DNA of 64,000 bases from Octopus vulgaris. Taxonomy: Eukaryota. The position numbers and the translations under genes were made by a program. The stretch is from positions 141,856,001 through 141,920,000 of the forward strand of contig OX597816.1 in assembly GCA_951406725.2 (NCBI GenBank), read 5' to 3'. The first letter of the stretch is position 1; each line of letters opens with the position of its first letter. The notes beneath the pieces are model-generated. The model was not told where the DNA came from and did not search any database. It saw only the letters and a list, made by a program, of their open reading frames with translations. This document shows, piece by piece, positions 3,711-59,566 of the stretch.

Positions 3711-3931
3711 ATATCAGGTCATCCCATAAGTTCTATCCAAATTTTGAATTCACAAACAGAAAAAATATGACAAGTTCATTAATAAGAAAAGACAAATTCT
3801 CCAGACTGAATGGTAAAAAAGACAATTTATGAGGAACACAACAAAAAATATATAAAAATGAAAGAAATAAATAAGCAAGGTCATGAAAGAAAACTGTGAC
3901 AGAGATATTCCTATATCTTTTATTTATTTTT

Positions 3932-13294: not shown

Positions 13295-16200
13295 TGAGAC
13301 AACCCCAGTAGTCTTGACATAAAACATTGTTTATTAATTGTCTATATTTTTATTCATCCAATCATATGATATGATTGATTCTATCATGGGGCGTTTTCCT
13401 ACTCCCACATCATTTATGTTTTAACTCGCACCTATTCATCCAATCTGGTGACACTTCATTGACTCTACCAGGTGATATTTTTTATACATTGAATCATTTT
13501 ATGGATCTATTCTTTTCCACTGAGCAAAACTTGTTTTTAGCACCATCCTATTGTGAACAATTGGAATTACAGTTTGCCATTTTACATTTCATTTAGGAAT
13601 TATTACAATATTTTTCAATCATTAATAAAATCATTATCCAAGCACAATATTATTATTTGTTCCTACATTATAACATTATTTGACATCAAGAATGAGATGG
13701 AATTTACTGCAGATCTCATTAATTTATTGTGCATGCAACAAGAATCCTTAGAAATGCAAAACACAACATGACAAGCTGCAATTGGATATTTTAACTGCTT
13801 TAGCTTCCAAGCTTATGCAGTCAAATACAGTTACATTGATTAACAATCAAAGAAGCATCACTTCAAAAGTTTTTGAATATGATGAACAAAATGAACTAAC
13901 TTTTGCATCTTGGTATAACTGTTATCAAGATCTTTTTGTCACTGAAGCATTGGAACTAGATGATTCAAGTAACCAAAGACTATTATTGTGAAAATTAGGC
14001 AGTATTGAATATAACAAGTATTTTAACTTTGTATTTCCCCAAACATCCTAATGAATTTGACTTTAAAATGATGGCAGACCAACTTGCAAAAATATTTGGT
14101 GAGACATCATTATTGTTTAACAGCAGATATAAATGTCTGAAATTAGAAAAATACCCCAAAGAAGATTTTAATGCATACACTGAATGTATAAGCAAAGAAT
14201 GTGAAAAATTTAATAAACTGACAATGACTAACAACATCATCATCATCATCATCATCATCATTTAGCGTCCGTTTTCCATGCTAGCATGGGTTGGACGGTT
14301 TAACTGGGGTCTGTGAAGCCGGAAGGCTTCATCAGGCCCAGTCAGATTTGGCAGTGTTTCTACGGCTGGATGCCCTTCCTAACGCCAACCACTCCACAGG
14401 TGCCAGACAGAGCTGGCACAACGGCCACGAACGGATGGTGCTTTTACGTGTCACTGGCACGGGGCCAGCCGAGGCTGGCAACGAACACGAGCGGATGGTG
14501 CTTTTACGTGCCACTGACACGGGGCCAGACAGAGCTGGCAAACGGCCACGAATGGACGGTGCTTCGATTTAAGAATCTAATTTTCATATTTGATCTGACA
14601 TCACCAAACTATGATGATATAAAACTCATGTCCTAACCAAACTGGATGCATCAGATAACATTACCTTACAACAATTAATGTGTGAATGTCAACAACTAGT
14701 TAATATTAAGCATGATATTCAAATGGTACAAAATTATATCCAAAATGAAATAGTTTCAACCTCTAATGCAGTTACTACAAAAAGACAAAGCTGGACTTCA
14801 TAAAATCCTAAACTGTTTTATGCATCTATGAGAACTTAGCAATGCTCTCCAACAGCATGTTGGAACTATGGTCAATGGCACCAAGCAAATTATTGTCCTT
14901 ACAAGAATGAAAAATGTCTTAAATGTCACAATTCTGAACATAGATATGATTATTGCTAATGTCCTGGTCATTCCAGTAACTGTAAAAACCATTGAATCAG
15001 ATCCAACCACAGAAAGTATTATTTCAAATGGAGTTTACACCACATTTAAAGGGAAAGTTACTGCAAAAGGGTAGTATTTTACTGTACAGATAGATGGATA
15101 TGATATATGCTTACAGCTTGACACTGCATCTGATATTACCATAATTTCTGAAGAAACAGGGCACAAAATTGGTAAACTTGCCATTTTATCAACTGAACAA
15201 AAAGCCAAGGTTGCTTCCAACAAACCATTGATTATCAAAGGTAAAGTATCATGTTTTTATTTACTCAAACACTCAACTTCCATTCATTCAGGATTTTACC
15301 ATATTACTGAGAATCCTTATCTGGATGTCTTCAGAATAGAATGGATTAAGAAACTTGGATTATGGATTATACCACTAAGTAACACATGCCCTTTTAAATA
15401 GGACTGGCATTATTGATGTTGAACATATTACACACACTAGCCATAATGGAAAATTCCAGCAAGAATTTAAATCAATTTTTGAAGTTGGCTTAGGATTATG
15501 CCCAAAATTTACTGCATTTTTATATCTTAAACTCAATGCCAGATCTGTTTTCAAACCAAAATGCCCAGTACGTTATGCCTTGTCATCGTTAGTTGAAAAT
15601 GTCACATGATAGAATCATGTAACATGATCAGATGATTAAAAATAGACCATTAATAAACAGTATTTTGTGTCGAGACAGCTGGAATTGTCTCATCTCCCCT
15701 TTTATGAAAGATGAATTTTATGAAAGATGAATATGAAAATGTTTTATTTTGAGAGTTTACCTGTATGTGCTCAGCAGGTTTTCTATTTCAACTGGATCTT
15801 CTTAAATTTGATGAAGTGGTTTCTAATTGAGTTTGAATATCTTGAAAACAAGCTGTGTAGATTAGAAAATTTGAATGTAATATCAAAAGTGAATTATTCA
15901 TCATGTGCAGCATCCATTGTTTTGGTTAACAAAAAAAAGCAAATGGCTCTATGGCTCTATAGGTTTATGTGCTAATTTCTCTATGGGACTTATTGATTCA
16001 TTAGAGCTACATTGTTATTCACTACCTGTTCTGAAAGACTTATTTACAAAATTAAATGGGGGGAAATGGTTTTCTAAGAGTGACTTAGCAGAAGTATATT
16101 TACGAATAGCTGTAAATGATGCATCAAAAGAATTCCTAACTATAAAATTTCCTCATGGCTAAAGTCTGTTCCAAGGATTTTTCAACAGCAAACACTTGCA

Positions 16201-26147: not shown

Positions 26148-26696
26148 TCATCATCATCATCATCATCATTTAGCGTCCGCTTTCCATGCTAGCATGGGTT
26201 GGACGGGTCAACTGGGGTCTGTGAAGCTGGAAGGCTTCGTCAGGCCCAGTCAGATCTGGCAGTGTTTTTACGGCTGGATGCCCTTCCTAACGCCAACCAC
26301 TCCGCGAGTGTAGTGGGTGTTTTTTACGTGCCACCTGCACAGGTGCCAGACAGAGCTGGCGAACGGCCACGAACGGATGGTGCTTTTACGTGTCACCGGC
26401 ACGGGGCCAGGCGATACTGGCAACGGACACGAACGGATGGTGCTTTTACGTGCCACCGACACGGGGCCAGACAGAGCTGGCAAACGGCCACGAACGGACG
26501 GTGCTTTTACGTGTCACCGGCACAGGGGCCAGCCGAGGCTGGCAACGGACGCGAACGGATGGTGCTTTTACGTGCCACCGACACGGTTGCCAGACAGAGC
26601 TGGCAAACGGCCACGAACGGACGGTGCTTTTACGTGTCACCGGCACGGGGGCCAGCCGAGGCTGGCAACGGACACGAACGGATGGTGCTTTTACGT
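26148..26696 (-). mobile_element. RTE 3'-UTR-only insertion with six ~61-bp minisatellite units, flanked by (TA)n
   Basis: (CAT)n tail and UTR match 56285-56700. The units alternate between two hairpin variants. Confidence 0.9.
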
Positions 26697-26828: not shown

Positions 26829-27211
26829 ATTAAATTTATAATGTTCATTTTTATACTTATTCCATTTGCCAACATTACAAAGAGGGTAGGTATATAGACA
26901 GAAAGGTGAATTTCATCAGTAAGAACATGGTAGTAGATCTTTCCTCATGGGCAGATTTTTTATCACTGAGTTCACTTTGTTATTTAGATTTACCAATGGG
27001 GAAGGTTTTTTAATTTTATTTAATAAAACAACCCCTCCCCATTGGTAAATCTAAATAACAAAGTGAGCTCAGTGATAAAAAATCTGCCCACGAGAAAAGA
27101 TCTTCTACTACCATGTTCTTACTGATAAAATTCACCTCCTGTCTATATACCTACCCTCTTTGTAATGTTGGCAAATGGAATAAGTACAAAAATTAACATT
27201 ATAAATTTAAT
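26829..27211. repeat. Inverted repeat with ~190-bp arms and almost no spacer
   Basis: TTAAATTTATAATGTT...GATTTACCAATGGGG and CCCCATTGGTAAATC...AACATTATAAATTTAA are reverse complements. Centre at ~27020. Confidence 0.92.
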
Positions 27212-27226
27212 TTTAAAAATTCCATA

Positions 27227-27314
27227 TGTGGCTGAAGAGTGCTCTACATTATAAAACTGATGTAATACTTACATTGTTTAATTAAATGAAGTAGGATGAA
27301 ACGATTGTACTACA
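27227..27314 (+). ncRNA. Type I hammerhead ribozyme with long stem II
   Basis: tgtgg-CTGAAGA-[..ctac..atgtaa-tac-ttacat..gtag..]-GAAAC-gatt-GTA-ctaca. Stem I is tgtgg/ctaca; predicted cleavage after GUA at 27309. Confidence 0.7.
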
Positions 27315-27641: not shown

Positions 27642-27711
27642 TCCCAGACCGACAGTTTCTAACTATTGCCAGCAAAAAAGTATTTGCTGAAGGCCAGTTT
27701 CTTCAGTGGGA
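27642..27711 (-). ncRNA. Type I hammerhead ribozyme
   Basis: Minus strand tccca-CTGAAGA-aact..cagcaaa..tttgctg..agtt-a-GAAAC-tgtcg-GTC-tggga. Perfect 5-bp stem I and a GUC cleavage triplet. Confidence 0.8.
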
Positions 27712-28336: not shown

Positions 28337-28933
28337 AATATATACATATATACATATATATATGTATATGTATATATATAGACATATATATATACATATA
28401 TGTATGTATATGTATATATATGTTCTCTTTTATAAATCTCAGATTCCTGCAACTCTGACCTAGATTTTCTGTCACCACAGAAATAAACTATTCTGTGTAG
28501 GTTGTGTACTTACACCCTTTCCAATCAGTTGTCCCATAATGCCCTATTTGGGCGGTTTTCTGCTTCACTAACTTCTTTTAGCCAATATAATTCCAACATA
28601 GTAGTTTTGTGAAATGAACAGAAATGTGATCAGCATCTTCTCATATATCAGGAAATTATATCTACATTATTATGGATAAATTCATCGTCTCTGAGTATGA
28701 AATATCTCCTCATATCTCCAGAAATTACACCTGCATTATTATGGATGGATTTACCTTTTCTGTGAAGCTAACAAACTTTTTTAAAACCTTTTTTAAAACC
28801 TTTTATAAAACTGTGCATCATTAGAGAACTTTTGAAGTCTGCTTACAATCTAACTTTGCTTTTTATAGAACTCTCTTCGATACTTCATGAATGTAGCCTC
28901 ACCCCCTAGGATGTTTGGAAAGCTCATAGGTGT

Positions 28934-29022
28934 TTTGGCTGATGAATATGGGACACTTGTATTTGCTGCAATATTTGCAGCTTTTAATAAAGCTGTTCTT
29001 CGTATGAAACAATTGTACTGAA
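28934..29022 (+). ncRNA. Type I hammerhead ribozyme with branched stem II (same family as 58865-58951)
   Basis: tttgg-CTGATGA-atatg..cgtat-GAAAC-aatt-GTA-ctgaa, with a palindromic stem III (ACAATTGT). Lies inside a ~750-bp element at ~28420-29172. Confidence 0.82.
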
Positions 29023-29208
29023 CAACTAATCCATTCTTGTTGCTTTTTTCTTGTTTATAATCACCCCACATTATTTTATGGTTAATACCATATAGATTTC
29101 TGGTGCATCTAAGTTAAGTACCGCATTCATGTGAATTCATTGGAACTCACTTGAATCTTAATTGTTTTTACTGAATATATATATATATATAATTTATTAT
29201 ATAGAAGG

Positions 29209-29259
29209 AGCTTCTACAGGACTAGAACTGTTTCATTCAAGAGAAATCTTCAGGAAGCT
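29209..29259 (-). ncRNA. Type I hammerhead ribozyme at the left end of the giant palindrome
   Basis: Reverse complement of the HHR at 39526-39576. Confidence 0.8.
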
Positions 29260-29559
29260 AGTTAACAAGTTTTGTATTGGCATTTATACATTTAGGCAGG
29301 TTTAAAGGGGTGGTGGTGGGGGACTTTTTGGGGGTAGGCATAGCGCAAAAAAATCATACTTGGGGGAGTGGTCAAGGAGTCAGTGGTAAATTAGATAGAA
29401 GAATAAATAAAAGAATAAAAAAAAGGAGAATAAAAAAATATATAGAAGAATAGAGTTTTAGGTAAATAAGGAAAATCTCACTTATACCTATACACATATG
29501 TATACATATATACACACACACACACACATATACATACACACATACATACACACACACCC

Positions 29560-29590
<31 letters not shown>

Positions 29591-29604
29591 TACATACATA
29601 TATC

Positions 29605-29652
<48 letters not shown>

Positions 29653-30329
29653 CACATATACATGCATATACATATACACACACACATGTATATATACACA
29701 CACACGACCACACATACACATACACACAAAAAAATATATACATACACACACATACACATACACACATACACACATATATATATATCCACATACACACATG
29801 CACACACAACACACAAGTCTCTATATACTCATATATACATATACACATACATGTATATATACATATATACATATATATATATACATACATATGTGTACCT
29901 ATTCATACCTACACATACACACATATATACATACAAATACAAACCCATTCCCTAATTTTAATTTTATTATCTTCATTTATTACTTTTGTTATCTTTGACC
30001 GCTGGTCACAAGCATCTTGGCTACGACAGCTAGTCCCTTTTATCTTTCTACTTGAGCACAAGCACTCACTCATGCACGCACACTCCTTAGCACGCACACT
30101 CACTCATTCGTACACTCATACACATACACGCACGCATTATATTCATACATACATACATCTACATACATACACGTATATACACATACGTACGCGTACCTAC
30201 AGATTCATGTCTACAATCTTAGAAGACTAGTCTATACATATACACCAATAAATATATATACACACATACATATACACCTACATACAAATACATACATACA
30301 TATATATACACACACATATACATACACAT

Positions 30330-32870: not shown

Positions 32871-33405
32871 TCAATCTGGTTGCCGGGTAGGTCTATAGTT
32901 CTTGTAGTTTGCATAATTCTTATGCATGCAATTTGGGGAGTGTTCTGAGATCTTGTTAAGGAGAGGGCCTTTGGCGAACAAGATCTCTAGGCTCTCCGAA
33001 ATGCAAAGGTCACAGCAGGTATGGCCTCCTGTGTACGAACGCGCTTTCTGTAGTAGTTTCCACTTGGTCTTGAAGGGGATGGAGTTCCTTTTAAGGTACC
33101 AGATGTGGGCGGCGAGGGTAGTTTGGTTGGATTTATCCGGTCGCCGGAACGAGTGTGTGTGTGCGTACCAACGGGTCTTAAAGCTGTTTGACGTCATTCC
33201 GATGTAGGAGGGCCTGATCTTTTGTATATCTCTGTAGCAGTTTGTTGAGGGGCAGGTGGTTTCGTCAGGGCCAATTGATCTTGGATGTAGTAGATATGTT
33301 AAGTTTTTTCACATTGTTGTTGGCTAGGTTCCTGGCTAGATTGGGCGTGGTAGAGTAGGAGAGTCTAATAGTGTTCTTATTTAGGATAGTGTAGTACTTA
33401 TGTTG
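32871..33405 (-). pseudogene. Penelope-like (Neptune-type) GIY-YIG endonuclease fragment, left copy
   Basis: YIGMTSNSFKTRWYAHTHSF..LAAHIWYLK..CDLCISESLEI..LLNKISE..CMH. Multiple small deletions at ~33208-33295. Confidence 0.9.
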
Positions 33406-33418
33406 TAGTACTTATGCT

Positions 33419-34064
33419 ACACCTGTAGCTAAAATCTTCTTCACTCTCCTACAGAAACACTTCCCCACCCAACATAAGTACTACACTATCCTAAATAAGA
33501 ACACTATTAGACTCTCCTACTCTACCACGCCCAATCTAGCCAGGAACCTAGCCAACAACAATGTGAAAAAACTTAACATATCTACTTTTTCCGAGGCCCA
33601 TCCAACGTCCGATAGCAATTGCAACTGCCCTGATAAAACCACCTGCCCCCTCAACAACAACTGCCTACAGAGGGACCTAGTATATACATGCGAGGTAAGA
33701 TCAGGCCCTGACGATAAAAGAAAATCCTACATCGGAATGACGTCAAACAGCTTTAAGACCCGTTGGTACGCACACACACACTCGTTCCGGCGACCGGATA
33801 AATCCAACCAAACTACCCTCGCCACCCACATCTGGTACCTTAAAAGGAACTCCATCCCCTTCAAGATCCAAGTGGAAACTACTACAGAAAGCGCGTTCGT
33901 ACACAGGAGGCCATACCTGCTGTGACCTTTGCATTTCGGAGAGCCTAGAGATCTTGTTCGCCAAAGGCCCTCTCCTTAACAAGATCTCAGAACACTCCCC
34001 AAATTGCATGCATAAGAATTATGCAAACTACAAGAACTATAGACCTACCCGGCAACCAGATTGA
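33419..34064 (+). pseudogene. Penelope-like (Neptune-type) linker + GIY-YIG endonuclease fragment, right copy, 5'-truncated
   Basis: KHFPTQH..NKNTIRLSYSTTPN, Cys-rich CNCP..CPL..CL, then LVY(x13)SYIGMT..R..H. One +1 frameshift at ~33869. Confidence 0.92.
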
Positions 34065-38265: not shown

Positions 38266-39134
38266 ATGTATATGTGTATGTGTATGTATTTGTATGTGTA
38301 TGCATGCGCGTATATGTATGTATATGTATACGTGTGGGTGGGTGTATGTGTGTATATATGTATGTATGTATGGGTGTATGTATGTATGTATGTATGCGGA
38401 TATGTATGTATATATGTATATATATATATATATGTGTGTGTGTGTATGTGTATGTATATATGTGTGTGTATATATATGTATGTATGTATTTGTATGTAGG
38501 TGTATATGTATGTGTGTATATATATTTATTGGTGTATATGTATAGACTAGTCTTCTAAGATTGTAGACATGAATCTGTAGGTACGCGTACGTATGTGTAT
38601 ATACGTGTATGTATGTAGATGTATGTATGTATGAATATAACGCGTGCGTGCGTGTATGTGTATGAGTGTACGAATGAGTGAGTGTGCGTGCTAAGGAGTG
38701 TGCGTGCATGAGTGAGTGCTTGTGCTCAAGTAGAAAGATAAAAGGGACTAGCTGTCGTAGCCAAGATGCTTGTGACCAGCGGTCAAAGATAACAAAAGTA
38801 ATAAATGAAGATAATAAAATTAAAATTAGGGAATGGGTTTGTATTTGTATGTATATATGTGTGTATGTGTAGGTATGAATAGGTACACATATGTATGTAT
38901 ATATATATATGTATATATATATGTATATATACATGTATGTGTATATGTATATATGAGTATATAGAGACTTGTGTGTTGTGTGTGCATGTGTGTATGTGGA
39001 TATATATATGTGTGTGTATGTGTGTATGTGTATGTGTGTGTATGTATATATTTTTTTGTGTGTATGTGTATGTGTGGTCGTGTGTGTGTGTATATATACA
39101 TGTGTGTGTGTATATGTATATGCATGTATATGTG

Positions 39135-39176
<42 letters not shown>

Positions 39177-39190
39177 GATATATGTATGTA

Positions 39191-39225
<35 letters not shown>

Positions 39226-39525
39226 GGGTGTGTGTGTATGTATGTGTGTATGTATATGTGTGTGTGTGTGTGTATATATGTATACATATGTGTATAGGTA
39301 TAAGTGAGATTTTCCTTATTTACCTAAAACTCTATTCTTCTATATATTTTTTTATTCCCCTTTTTTTTATTCTTTTATTTATTCTTCTATCTAATTTACC
39401 ACTGACTCCTTGACCACTACCCCAAGTATGATTTTTTTGCGCTATGCCTACCCCCAAAAAGTCCCCAACCACCACCCCTTTAAACCTGCCTAAATGTATA
39501 AATGCCAATACAATTCTTGTTAACT

Positions 39526-39576
39526 AGCTTCCTGAAGATTTCTCTTGAATGAAACAGTTCTAGTCCTGTAGAAGCT
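39526..39576 (+). ncRNA. Type I hammerhead ribozyme at the right end of the giant palindrome
   Basis: agcttc-CTGAAGA-t-ttc(tctt)gaa-t-GAAA-cag(ttctagtc)ctg-TA-gaagct. 6-bp stem I and 4-bp stem III; cleavage after GUA at 39570. Confidence 0.82.
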
Positions 39577-39662
39577 CCTTCTATATAATAAATTAATTTT
39601 ACTCTGCTATGTATTGAGTACCTTATTTACTGTGGTTAACCCCGAATCAACCCGGGACCTAC

Positions 39663-48045: not shown

Positions 48046-48158
48046 ACCATTACAATTGTTTCAACACATCACTACCAGCTGTTCATTGCTGAATGTTAAA
48101 TGCATTGTGTTAATCATTGCTATTCAGCAATACTGGGAGATGCAGTTTCTTAAATGAT
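48046..48158 (-). ncRNA. Decayed long-stem-II hammerhead-like motif
   Basis: Minus strand atcat-(T)TAAGA-aac..attgctgaat..attcagcaat..gtt-GAAAC-aatt-GTA-atggt. The CUGA core is damaged. Confidence 0.45.
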
Positions 48159-56284: not shown

Positions 56285-58670
56285 TCATCATCATCATCAT
56301 CATCATCATTAGCGTCCGTTCTCCATGCTAGCATGGGTTGGACGTTCAACTGGGGTCTGTGAAGCTGGAAGGCTTCATCAGGCCCAGTCAAATCTGGCAG
56401 TGTTTCTACGGCTGGATGCCCTTCCTAACGCCAACCACTCCGTGAGTGTAGTGGGTGCTTTTTACGTGCCACCTGCACAGGTGCCAGACAGAGCTGGCAA
56501 ACAGCCACGAACGGATGGTGCTTTTACGTGTCACCGGCACGGGGCCAGGCGAGGCTGGCAACGGACACGAACGGATGGTGCTTTTACGTGCCACCAACAC
56601 GGGGGCCAGACAGAGCTGGCAAACGGCCACGAAACGGATGGTGCTTTTACGTGTCACCGGCACGGGGGCTAGGCGAGGCTGGCAACGGGCACGAACGGAT
56701 GGTGCTTTTACATGTCACCGACATGGGGGCCAGACAGGGCTGGCAAACGGACACGAACGGATGGTGCTTTTACATGTCACCGACATGGGGGCCAGACAGG
56801 GCTGGCAAACGGCCACGAACGGATGGTGCTTTTACGTGTCACCGGCATGGGGGCCAGGCGAGGCTGGCAACGGCACAAACGGATGGTGCTTTTACGTGTC
56901 ACCGGCACGGGGGCCAGACAGAGCTGGCAAACAGCCACAAACGGATGGTGCTTTTACGTGTCACCGGCACGGGGGCCAGGCGAGGCTGGCAATGGACACG
57001 AACAGATGGTGCTTTTACATGTCACCGACATGGGGCCAGACAGGGCTGGCAAACGGACACGAACGGATGGTGCTTTTACATGTCACCGACATGGGGGCCA
57101 GACAGGGCTGGCAAACGGCCACGAACGGATGGTGCTTTTACGTGTCACCGGCACGGGGGCCAGACAGAGCTGGCAAACGGCCACAAACGGATGGTGCTTT
57201 TACGTGTCACCGGCACGGGGGCCAGGCCAGGCTGGCAACGAACACAAACGGATGGTGCTTTTACGTGCCACCGACACGGAGGCCAGACAGGGCTGGCAAA
57301 CGGCTACGAACGGATGGTACTTTTACGTGTCACCTGCACGGGGGCCCTGATGTTGATCGACCTCAATTTGGTTTGATCTTGATTTTGACTGTTCTCACTG
57401 GTCTTGCCGGGTTTTCTCACGCACAGCATACCTCCAAAGGTCTCGGTCACTGGTCATTTCCTTGGTGAGACCTAAAGTTCGAAGGTCGTGCTTCACCGCC
57501 TCGACCCAGGTTTTCCTGGGTCTACCTCTTCCACAGGTCCCCTCAACTGCCAGGGTGTGGCACTTTCGCACACAACCATCTTCAGCCATTCTCATCACGT
57601 GACCATACCAGCGCATACGTCTCTCTTGCACACAACAACTGATGCTTCTTAGGTTCAACTTTCTCTCAAGGTACTTACACTCTGTCGATTATGAACACTG
57701 ACATTACACATCCATCGGAGCATACTAGCTTCATTTCTTGCGAGCTTACGCAAATCCTCAGCAGTCACAGCCCAAGTTTCACTACCATGTAGCATGGCTG
57801 TACGTACACATGCATCATACAGTCTGCCTTTTACTTTGAGCGAGAGGCCTTTTGTCACCAGCAGGGGTAAGAGCTCTCTGAACTTTGCCCAGGTTATTCT
57901 TACTCTAACAGTTATACTTTCAGCGCACCCGCCCCCGCTACTGACTTGGTCACCTAGGTAACGGAAACTATCAACTACTTCTAGCTTTTCTCCCTGGAAA
58001 GTAACGGAAGTTGGTCTCAGAGCATTTTCAGTGTTAATTGTTCCTGAGCATCTGCCACATACAAAAACCATCTTCCTAGTTAGCCTTCCTTTGACATTGC
58101 TGCACCTCTTATGTGTCCATAGCTTACACTTGGTGCATCTTATAGAGTTTCTACCTACACCTTTTCTACAGATCGAGCAGGGCCATCTACCTGAAGGCGT
58201 TTGTGATTGGTCTACCTTCCTACTTATTAGGACTTTGGTTTTGGCTAGGTTGATTCTAAGGCCCTTCGATTCTAAACCTTGTTTCCATACCTGAAACTTC
58301 TCCTCTAGTTCTGATAGAGACTCAGCAATTAGAGCAAGGTCATCAGCATAGAGGAGCTCCCAGGGGCATCCTGTCTTGAATTCCTCCGTTATTGCCTGGA
58401 GGACTATGATAAATAGGAGGGGACTGAGGACTGAACCTTGGTGGACCCCAACCTCTACCCTGAATTCTTCACTGTACTCGGTGCCAACCCTCACCTTACT
58501 AGCAGCGTCTCTGTACATGGCTTGTACAGCTTTCACTAACCATTCATCTATCCCTAGTTTCCTCATTGACCACCAGATGAGGGATCGGGGGACCCTGTCG
58601 AAGGCTTTCTCCATATCAACAAAAGCCAGGTATAGGGGCTTGTCTTTGGCTAAGTAGCTTGTCTTTGGCT

Positions 58671-58672: not shown

Positions 58673-58722
<50 letters not shown>

Positions 58723-58864
58723 CTATTAAGATTCAAGTGAGTTCTGTTGAATTCACATGAATGCGGTACTTAACTTAGATGCACCAGAAATCTATATGGT
58801 GTTAACCATAAGATAATGCGGGGTGATTATAAATAAGAACAAAGCAACAAGAATGGATCAATAT

Positions 58865-58951
58865 TTCGGTACAATTGTTTCGTACGAAGACAGCTTTATT
58901 AAGGCTGCAAATATTGCAGTAAATATAAGTGACCCGTACTCATCAGCCGAA
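58865..58951 (-). ncRNA. Canonical type I hammerhead ribozyme with branched stem II
   Basis: Minus strand ttcgg-CTGATGA-gtacg..ctgcaa-tat-ttgcag..cgtac-GAAAC-aatt-GTA-ccgaa. All core nucleotides and stems are intact. An inverted partial copy lies at 58981-59086. Confidence 0.9.
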
Positions 58952-59566
58952 AAAACATCTGAGTTCTCCAAACATCTAAGGGGTCACTTATATTTACTGC
59001 AATATTTGCAGCCTTAATAAAGTTGTCTTCATATGAAACAATTGTACCGAAATATTGATCCATTCTTGTTGCTTTGTTCTTATTTATATATATATACACT
59101 TTTTTACTATTTTACTTGTTTCAGTCATTTGACTGCAGCCTTGCTAAAGCACCGCCTTTAGTTGGACAAATCAACCCCTGGACTTATTCTTTGTAAGTCT
59201 AGTACTTATTTAATTGGTCTGTTTTGCTGTACTGCTATGTCATGGGGATGTAAACACACCAACATTGGTTGTCAAGCTATGGCGTGGTGACAAACACAGA
59301 CACAGATATATACATATATGCATAAATGTGAAACAAAGTGGAAAAAAGAGTGCTCAAATACCAGAGGTAGAGTAATATGCAAAACAGACCAATAAAATAA
59401 GTACTAGGCTTACAAAGAATAAGTCCAGGGATTGATTTGTCCAACTAAAAGCGGTGCTCTAGCAAGGATGCAGTCAAATGACTGAAACAAGTAAAATAGT
59501 AAAAAAGTGTATATATATATATATATAAATATAAATAAGAACAAAGCAGCAGAAATATAACAAAAG

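Follow-up and report, generated by a model that had tools for sequence, protein, structure and literature searches.

In the 64-kb window of the Octopus vulgaris genome analysed here (the whole stretch of DNA, to which the positions in Table 1 refer), the minus strand carries what its sequence identifies as a genuine type I hammerhead borne by a Penelope-like element (PLE), with predicted cleavage. The interpretation we favour, and hold to be likely, is that the motif belongs to the 3' pseudo-LTR of a young Hydra-clade PLE, that its 58-nt stem II forms an unbranched rod, and that it would cleave at GUA only as a dimer or with the element's protein. As such, this long-armed, probably dimer-type hammerhead of a Hydra-clade PLE is likely a new form of a known kind of ribozyme.

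Table 1. Hammerhead motifs and associated features in the 64-kb window.
Feature	Position	Strand	Remarks
Type I hammerhead motif (focal)	58864-58952	minus	stem I: 58947-58952 pairs with 58864-58869
Core CUGAUGA	58940-58946	minus	from sequence
58-nt stem II region	58882-58939	minus	G10.1-C11.1 at base; predicted unbranched irregular rod
Apical hairpin CUGCAA-UAU-UUGCAG	58905-58919	minus	predicted; covaries across subfamilies
AAUAAA, 3' arm of stem II	58895-58900	minus	25 nt before cut; candidate poly(A) signal
GAAA, palindromic stem III ACAAUUGU and GUA	58870-58881	minus	predicted cut between 58870 and 58869
GAAA	58881-58878	minus	conserved core element of the focal hammerhead
Stem III palindrome ACAAUUGU	58878-58871	minus	
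Sense arm: 5'-truncated 3' pseudo-LTR of Hydra-clade PLE	58722-58980	minus	includes 106-nt tail, 58722-58827
(TA)24 target microsatellite	58674-58721		tail end of the focal insertion
Inverted partial copy	58981-59088	plus	spans -65 to +42 relative to the cut; without CUGAUGA
Paralogous hammerhead, subfamily B2	28934-29022	plus	60-nt stem II; A10.1-U11.1
Hammerhead, subfamily C	27227-27314	plus	59-nt stem II; apical AUGUAA-UAC-UUACAU; ~54% identical to focal insert
Hammerhead of another family	27642-27711	minus	40-nt stem II; GUC triplet
Decayed hammerhead, core UUUAAGA	48046-48150	minus	family with ~98-nt arm

Results

The focal motif and its inverted copy

The elements that define a type I hammerhead (CUGANGA, GAAA, A15.1-U16.1 and an NUH triplet) are all present, here with CUGAUGA, GAAA and GUA, and together with the G10.1-C11.1 pair they bear out the first-pass annotation of this DNA, which had called the core perfect. 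Stem I comprises 6 bp and is open, as in the type I layout, stem III has 2 bp, and the seven basal pairs of stem II enclose 44 nt, which gives the 58-nt region and agrees with the roughly 45 nt counted before. A strict hammerhead descriptor matched only this motif and its paralogue at 28934 in the 64-kb window. With a relaxed descriptor, 26 matches (19 distinct sequences) were obtained in 800 kb of unselected genome, above the chance level of zero to two per shuffle in five shuffles, and the focal motif itself is present in many identical genome copies. Rfam returned no hammerhead family among the best 150 of 287 matches for the window; at the focal interval a miRNA model alone matched, far under threshold and because of the inverted repeat.

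The motif had also been described as intact, which holds for the sequence, with its complete core, but not for the context, where 108 bp of pairing are possible with the adjoining inverted copy. When the sense and inverted arms were folded together, this duplex (-178.6 kcal/mol) absorbed stem II, GAAA and the cut site. Since the duplex occupies the hammerhead, read-through transcripts of the focal copy are not expected to cleave, and the copy is probably inert. The plus strand of the same region (58853-58984) holds a short open frame, 44 codons long in intact A copies and open in A3, which is probably incidental.

The host element

Searching the whole 2.8-Gb genome yielded 1638 preliminary candidates, with 100% identity in the first 12 of the list. 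Following the repeat upstream reaches an ORF for a reverse transcriptase (RT) and an endonuclease. At locus L082, two hammerheads (at 3835 and 8034) stand as a direct repeat 4.2 kb apart, and these pseudo-LTR hammerheads flank the RT and a C-terminal endonuclease, in agreement with the earlier assignment to a PLE. The RT matches Pfam RVT_1 with an E-value of 5e-4, under the curated cut-off, and the ORF contains one frameshift and two in-frame stops. Its motifs are RIRWK, ADKTGN, a CxCX5C linker (CNCRIRSKC), CQLC (CxxC) and CIH (CxH), without CCHH; GIY-YIG went undetected by Pfam in this family, and the endonuclease was assigned by motif reading. The diagnostics given for the Hydra clade are a C-terminal endonuclease, RWK, DKT, CxCX5C, the lack of CCHH, CxxC/CxH and (TA)n targeting (Craig et al. 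2021, PMC8557442). By these motifs, with Hydra-1_Obim compared by eye, the host, a young and very abundant PLE, is assigned to the Hydra clade.

The copies are flanked by (TA)n, which shows the insertion preference; in the focal insertion a short (TA)n also lies beyond the other end, near 59086-59097. Hallmarks of PLEs, namely 5' truncation, an inverted copy and a tail at one end, are seen in the window copy and in L001-L030. In many copies the sense arm ends 148 nt past the cut and the inverted arm 42 nt past it, both abutting (TA)n, and these ends therefore suggest that uncut RNA was copied.

Other hosts were rejected. A Naiad-clade element would have an N-terminal endonuclease, DKA and no canonical hammerhead, in contrast to the C-terminal endonuclease and DKT of L082; a non-LTR retrozyme would be a short, ORF-less tandem unit, whereas this repeat runs on into the RT-endonuclease ORF; and a Neptune-like RT with GIY-YIG beside L031 has no match to the family ORF and was taken to be an adjacent, separate element.

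Among other features of the window, fragments of another Hydra-type endonuclease with a CxCX5C linker lie in a partial tandem at 32871-33925, and a 337-codon fragment of a non-LTR reverse transcriptase (57655-58668, minus) adjoins the (TA)24 target. A 755-nt inverted repeat, 92% complementary, has its arms 8.9 kb apart (29190-29944 and 38841-39595), and a GC-rich tandem repeat family of 60-62 nt occupies three sites (14402-14564, 26322-26696 and 56454-57346).

Long stems II in the window and the genome

Long stem II inserts had been noted elsewhere in the window, and those at 27227 and 27642 stand, with arms of 59 and 40 nt. The motif at 48046 is decayed in its core; its relatives have CUGAAGA or CUGAUGA cores and an arm of about 98 nt. 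In the 27227 copy a private change weakens the base of stem II; upstream of it, a long near-perfect inverted repeat (26850-27190) is probably the inverted 5' part of the same insertion. Long stems II are a genome-wide trend: the 19 distinct motifs of the unselected 800 kb have arms of 13-100 nt, and in eight of them the arm is at least 42 nt, although two of these eight are probably chance matches. The focal arm, which the first-pass annotation had called unusually long, exceeds the published Hydra range (about 12-26 nt) but is not unique. When the other long arms were folded, nine of 11 gave single rods.

Several further long-armed families were encountered. A very young, non-coding tandem repeat of 535 nt (L278:2365-2470 and L319-L333), for which the 40 matches listed are 100% identical over 106 nt, has a rod-like stem II of 51 nt, stems I and III like those of subfamily B, and a UGUAA/UUACA apical hairpin; it is retrozyme-like, being (TA)n-flanked with inverted arms, and its arm is without AAUAAA. 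Another group (L096:398, L120:2803, L222:8221, L289:2824 and L316:1002) has stems II of 54-57 nt with GUC or GUA, and G.U changes keep its basal stem. At L133:1270-1720 lies a 172-nt tandem repeat related to the motif at 48046, in which every unit has a hammerhead core with an arm of 98 nt.

Predicted fold of the arm

The minimum free energy structure of the focal insert is a rod (z -2.8). The earlier description of stem II as branched finds no support: branched structures made up one of 995 samples for the focal insert, and 0-26 per 1000 across 12 representative copies. The apical hairpin CUGCAA/UUGCAG forms with a probability of 0.999-1.0. Taken without the basal pairs, the inner insert has a modest folding advantage over shuffles in five of six subfamilies (z -0.5 to -1.9) and a clear one in D (-4.0). 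The canonical 4-bp helix II with a loop contacting stem I is absent, and what is predicted instead is a 58-nt rod capped by a 3-nt loop, on which grounds a canonical, tertiary-stabilised metazoan type I hammerhead was ruled out.

Subfamilies and covariation

Related forms were gathered by targeted genome searches, of which the best 40 candidates each were kept; the copies therefore resemble the query sequences, and near-identical ones are favoured. De-duplication reduced 275 matches to 208 copies in nine subfamily groups, a count that leaves out partial copies and stems II outside 52-66 nt. The covariation alignment consists of 18 rows, hand-picked as subfamily forms.

From these 18 rows RNAalifold recovered the hammerhead and one apical hairpin. 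The share of paired cells is 93.6%, and none of 500 shuffles reaches the covariation score. Two-sided changes occur in nine of 20 pairs, a count that 49 of 500 shuffles match, and most double changes fall on the single split between A/B and C/D, that is, on few independent events. Stems I and II covary, and within the arm insert covariation is limited to the apical hairpin, where pair 37-51 is C-G, A-U or U-A and pair 40-48 is C-G, U.G or U-A. The stem changes had been proposed to preserve structure, and this is what the alignment indicates. As for the insert across copies, the apical hairpin is conserved and covarying, while the middle of the rod is without consensus pairing.

The pair at 10.1-11.1 is G-C in 47 of 49 A copies, G.U in eight of nine B1 and all 38 B3 copies, A-U in all 29 B2 copies and U.U in C2, so that G10.1-C11.1 is lost in most subfamilies. 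Natural hammerheads tolerate U.U at this position (PMC3088659). The series fits a path from G-C through G.U to A-U in amplifying lineages, as read from sequences in which the order of change is not polarised. The paralogue at 28934 sits in a pseudo-LTR copy that matches the focal element over 28903-29162. Its stem II had been reported to read atatg/cgtat in place of gtacg/cgtac, with stem I retained through G-U pairs; both changes were confirmed, and stem I has 5 bp including two G.U pairs. The accompanying worry that CpG decay might explain such differences is justified for the U.G wobble, which occurs in two of 29 B2 copies and appears to be near-private CpG decay, but not for the A-U pair, which all B2 copies share: C11.1 lies within a CpG, and the change from G10.1 to A falls outside CpG context. 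In eight of nine groups the commonest form of stem III is self-complementary (ACAAUUGU, ACGAUUGU or ACGAUCGU), and the five decayed C3 copies are without a common form. A single B3 copy (L275, minus strand) has a deletion that cuts stem II to 26 nt and leaves the core intact.

Is the arm then under selection at all? It could be neutral baggage, with selection acting on the core and basal pairs only and the apical symmetry produced by quasi-palindrome correction in AT-rich, inversion-prone DNA. The continuous range of stem II lengths across families (13-100 nt) speaks for this, as do the weak folding of the inner insert in most subfamilies, the lack of consensus pairing in mid-rod and a C.A mismatch within the apical stem of B3. 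Moreover, the 16 G.U cells of the apical stem are accompanied by seven A.C mismatch cells, and DNA-level palindrome correction may therefore contribute. However, a length of 58-60 nt and the position of the apical hairpin are retained even though inserts of the A/B and C/D groups are only 51-63% identical, two apical positions each show three pair types, one series passing through U.G, and the UGUAA/UUACA apical hairpin recurs in the 535-nt repeat, which is otherwise without BLAST similarity to four element loci. On this evidence we consider an entirely neutral arm unlikely.

A candidate poly(A) signal and a proposed switch

AAUAAA or AUUAAA is found 23-26 nt before the cut in 204 of the 208 de-duplicated copies, with every one of the nine groups represented, despite the low identity of inserts between A/B and C/D. 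The hexamer columns (57-63) show 0.43 changes per column, more than the core (0.23) but fewer than adjacent unpaired stretches (1.25-2.3), and subfamily-level substitutions interconvert the two hexamers. The spacing from hexamer to cut fits metazoan poly(A) sites. The arm might thus exist to carry a poly(A) signal: hexamer and a U/GU-rich tract would direct polyadenylation near the ribozyme site, the rod would partly hide the hexamer, which is partly paired in predicted folds, and the state of the fold would settle whether a transcript becomes mRNA, cut RNA or full-length template. This account is post hoc, and 5.8% of random 37-nt windows also contain a hexamer. Only one of 21 other hammerhead clusters has it at that distance, and the 535-nt repeat has a similar hammerhead without it. 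With respect to polyadenylated retrocopies, none of seven genome matches to the hexamer plus an A-tail derives from the focal PLE family, and the insertion ends fall beyond the candidate site. Furthermore, conservation of the hexamer could reflect pairing or protein binding, and the 208 copies, picked by query likeness, are mostly identical by descent. A role in polyadenylation as the reason for the arm is therefore doubtful, and we are just as sceptical of an extension in which a ribozyme with its own poly(A) signal has a rod capped by a conserved hairpin that docks the Penelope protein and switches the transcript between mRNA, cleaved RNA and full-length template. Among the passages covered by a literature search for a link between hammerheads and poly(A) signals there was no such report, only a review passage on Clec2. 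If the embedded signal were used, ribozyme folding would be linked to 3'-end formation.

Finally, a branched stem II in which two competing hairpins act as a conformational switch for cleavage, a reading built on the overlapping alternative hairpins of the first-pass annotation, is highly improbable. The sequences of subfamilies A, B1 and B2 permit either hairpin, but the two overlap in CAG and are mutually exclusive, so no branch could arise from them. Only CUGCAA/UUGCAG stands, since the CAGC/GCUG alternative has a probability of 0.000-0.001, 12 of the 18 rows in the alignment cannot form its central pair, and 233 of 500 shuffles reach its level of pairing. A branched or switchable insert built from these hairpins was rejected on the sampled folds and the unconserved alternative.

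Predicted mode of cleavage

About 97% of the monomer ensemble contains stems I and II, but the full active fold accounts for 2.4%. Closing stem III as a monomer hairpin costs +2.4 kcal/mol, compared with a self-duplex of -6.4 kcal/mol for the focal form and -5.8 to -10.0 over all forms. The short helix III with a palindromic loop is a feature of dimer-type PLE hammerheads, and metazoan PLE hammerheads are weak in vitro and cleave as dimers (PMC4209133). The palindromic stem III thus fits dimer cleavage, by prediction and by analogy, in line with what had been suggested for this motif from the palindrome. For the anole PLE hammerhead, protein-assisted cleavage was described, with uncut RNA as the insertion substrate (PMC11167929).

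A genomic footprint of cleavage was sought in 30 ORF-start copies, none of which begins within 25 nt of the cut; 18 extend upstream past the cut and 12 start at +27 to +206, with some ends limited by reference divergence. This neither proves nor excludes cleavage, and is consistent with an uncut template. Three of the 30 (L295, L301 and L306) begin at +157 to +161, at the tail end, and are possible exact unit-length insertions.

Discussion

The octopus motif shares much with the hammerheads described for Hydra-clade PLEs (PMC8557442): these are likewise type I, on the sense strand and in the 3' UTR or pseudo-LTR, with a stem I of 4-7 bp, a self-complementary stem III and frequent GUA or GUU, and their elements have (TA)n targets and 5'-inverted copies. 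Penelope-13_HM and Penelope-17_HM have G.U at 10.1-11.1, as do some octopus subfamilies. In contrast, stem II measures about 12-26 nt by our own count in the 26 Hydra rows of File S2 of that study, as opposed to 58-60 nt in the octopus element, more than double the longest Hydra stem II tabulated there. Hydra-1_Obim, a different family, has a stem II of about 23 nt. Furthermore, units of the clade are generally reported as shorter than 3 kb, compared with about 4.2 kb here, where Asn-rich linker inserts between RT and endonuclease (L082:5565-6500 and L079) lengthen the element.

Closest in arm length are PLE-X1_sMoe and PLE-X1_sTam of spike mosses (File S2, PMC8557442), PLE hammerheads that are likewise of type I and long in stem II and are flagged as non-canonical; in PLE-X1_sMoe stem II is about 54 nt long and an inner hairpin is visible by eye. 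Unlike the octopus family, these are endonuclease-less plant elements that target 28S rDNA and are unrelated in sequence, and the table gives neither covariation nor activity for them. The minimal or small-helix-III hammerheads of metazoan PLEs (Cervera and de la Pena 2014, PMC4209133) share the pseudo-LTR location, a palindromic helix III, a larger-than-usual helix II and pairs on opposite strands 100-700 bp apart, and are dimer-dependent with low in vitro activity. Their helix II, however, has 6-8 bp with a short loop, and the passages covered contain no 58-nt rod. The literature covered describes no 58-nt stem II in an animal PLE, and the supplementary figures of PMC4209133 may bear on this novelty; the main text of a 2026 retrozyme preprint does not mention stem II or helix II.

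Poseidon PAc of Anolis (PMC11167929) offers a comparison for the way these elements insert. There, two reverse-transcription starts downstream of the cut define the tail and uncut RNA is the template, which in octopus is indicated by the insertion ends. The PAc ORF starts in stem II, whereas the octopus start codon lies about 210 nt after the cut. The PAc tail is 30-40 nt, compared with 106 nt in octopus, and its protein-assisted cleavage is a measured one.

How could a hammerhead accommodate such an arm? We propose that the distal arm is tolerated because hammerheads of this kind may do without the canonical contact between loop I and loop II, and that selection would keep the arm folded and away from the core. 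The folded arm may perhaps also offer the element's protein a place to dock. Tandem precursors would be processed by cleavage, leaving a 5' end roughly 210 nt upstream of the start codon, while uncut RNA would serve as the insertion template. The focal copy itself would be a truncated, inverted insertion, with its hammerhead sequestered in the 108-bp duplex in read-through RNA.

The length of these arms may also affect how PLE hammerheads are counted. Craig et al. 2021 (PMC8557442) searched for cores with a spacer of 7-17 nt. With stem II more than twice as long as the published Hydra arms, short-loop descriptors would likely miss such motifs, and therefore PLE hammerhead counts may be too low. 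The nine groups constitute a natural mutational series, with G-C, G.U, A-U and U.U at 10.1-11.1, three palindromes and three apical pair types, that lends itself to the question of dimer and protein dependence.
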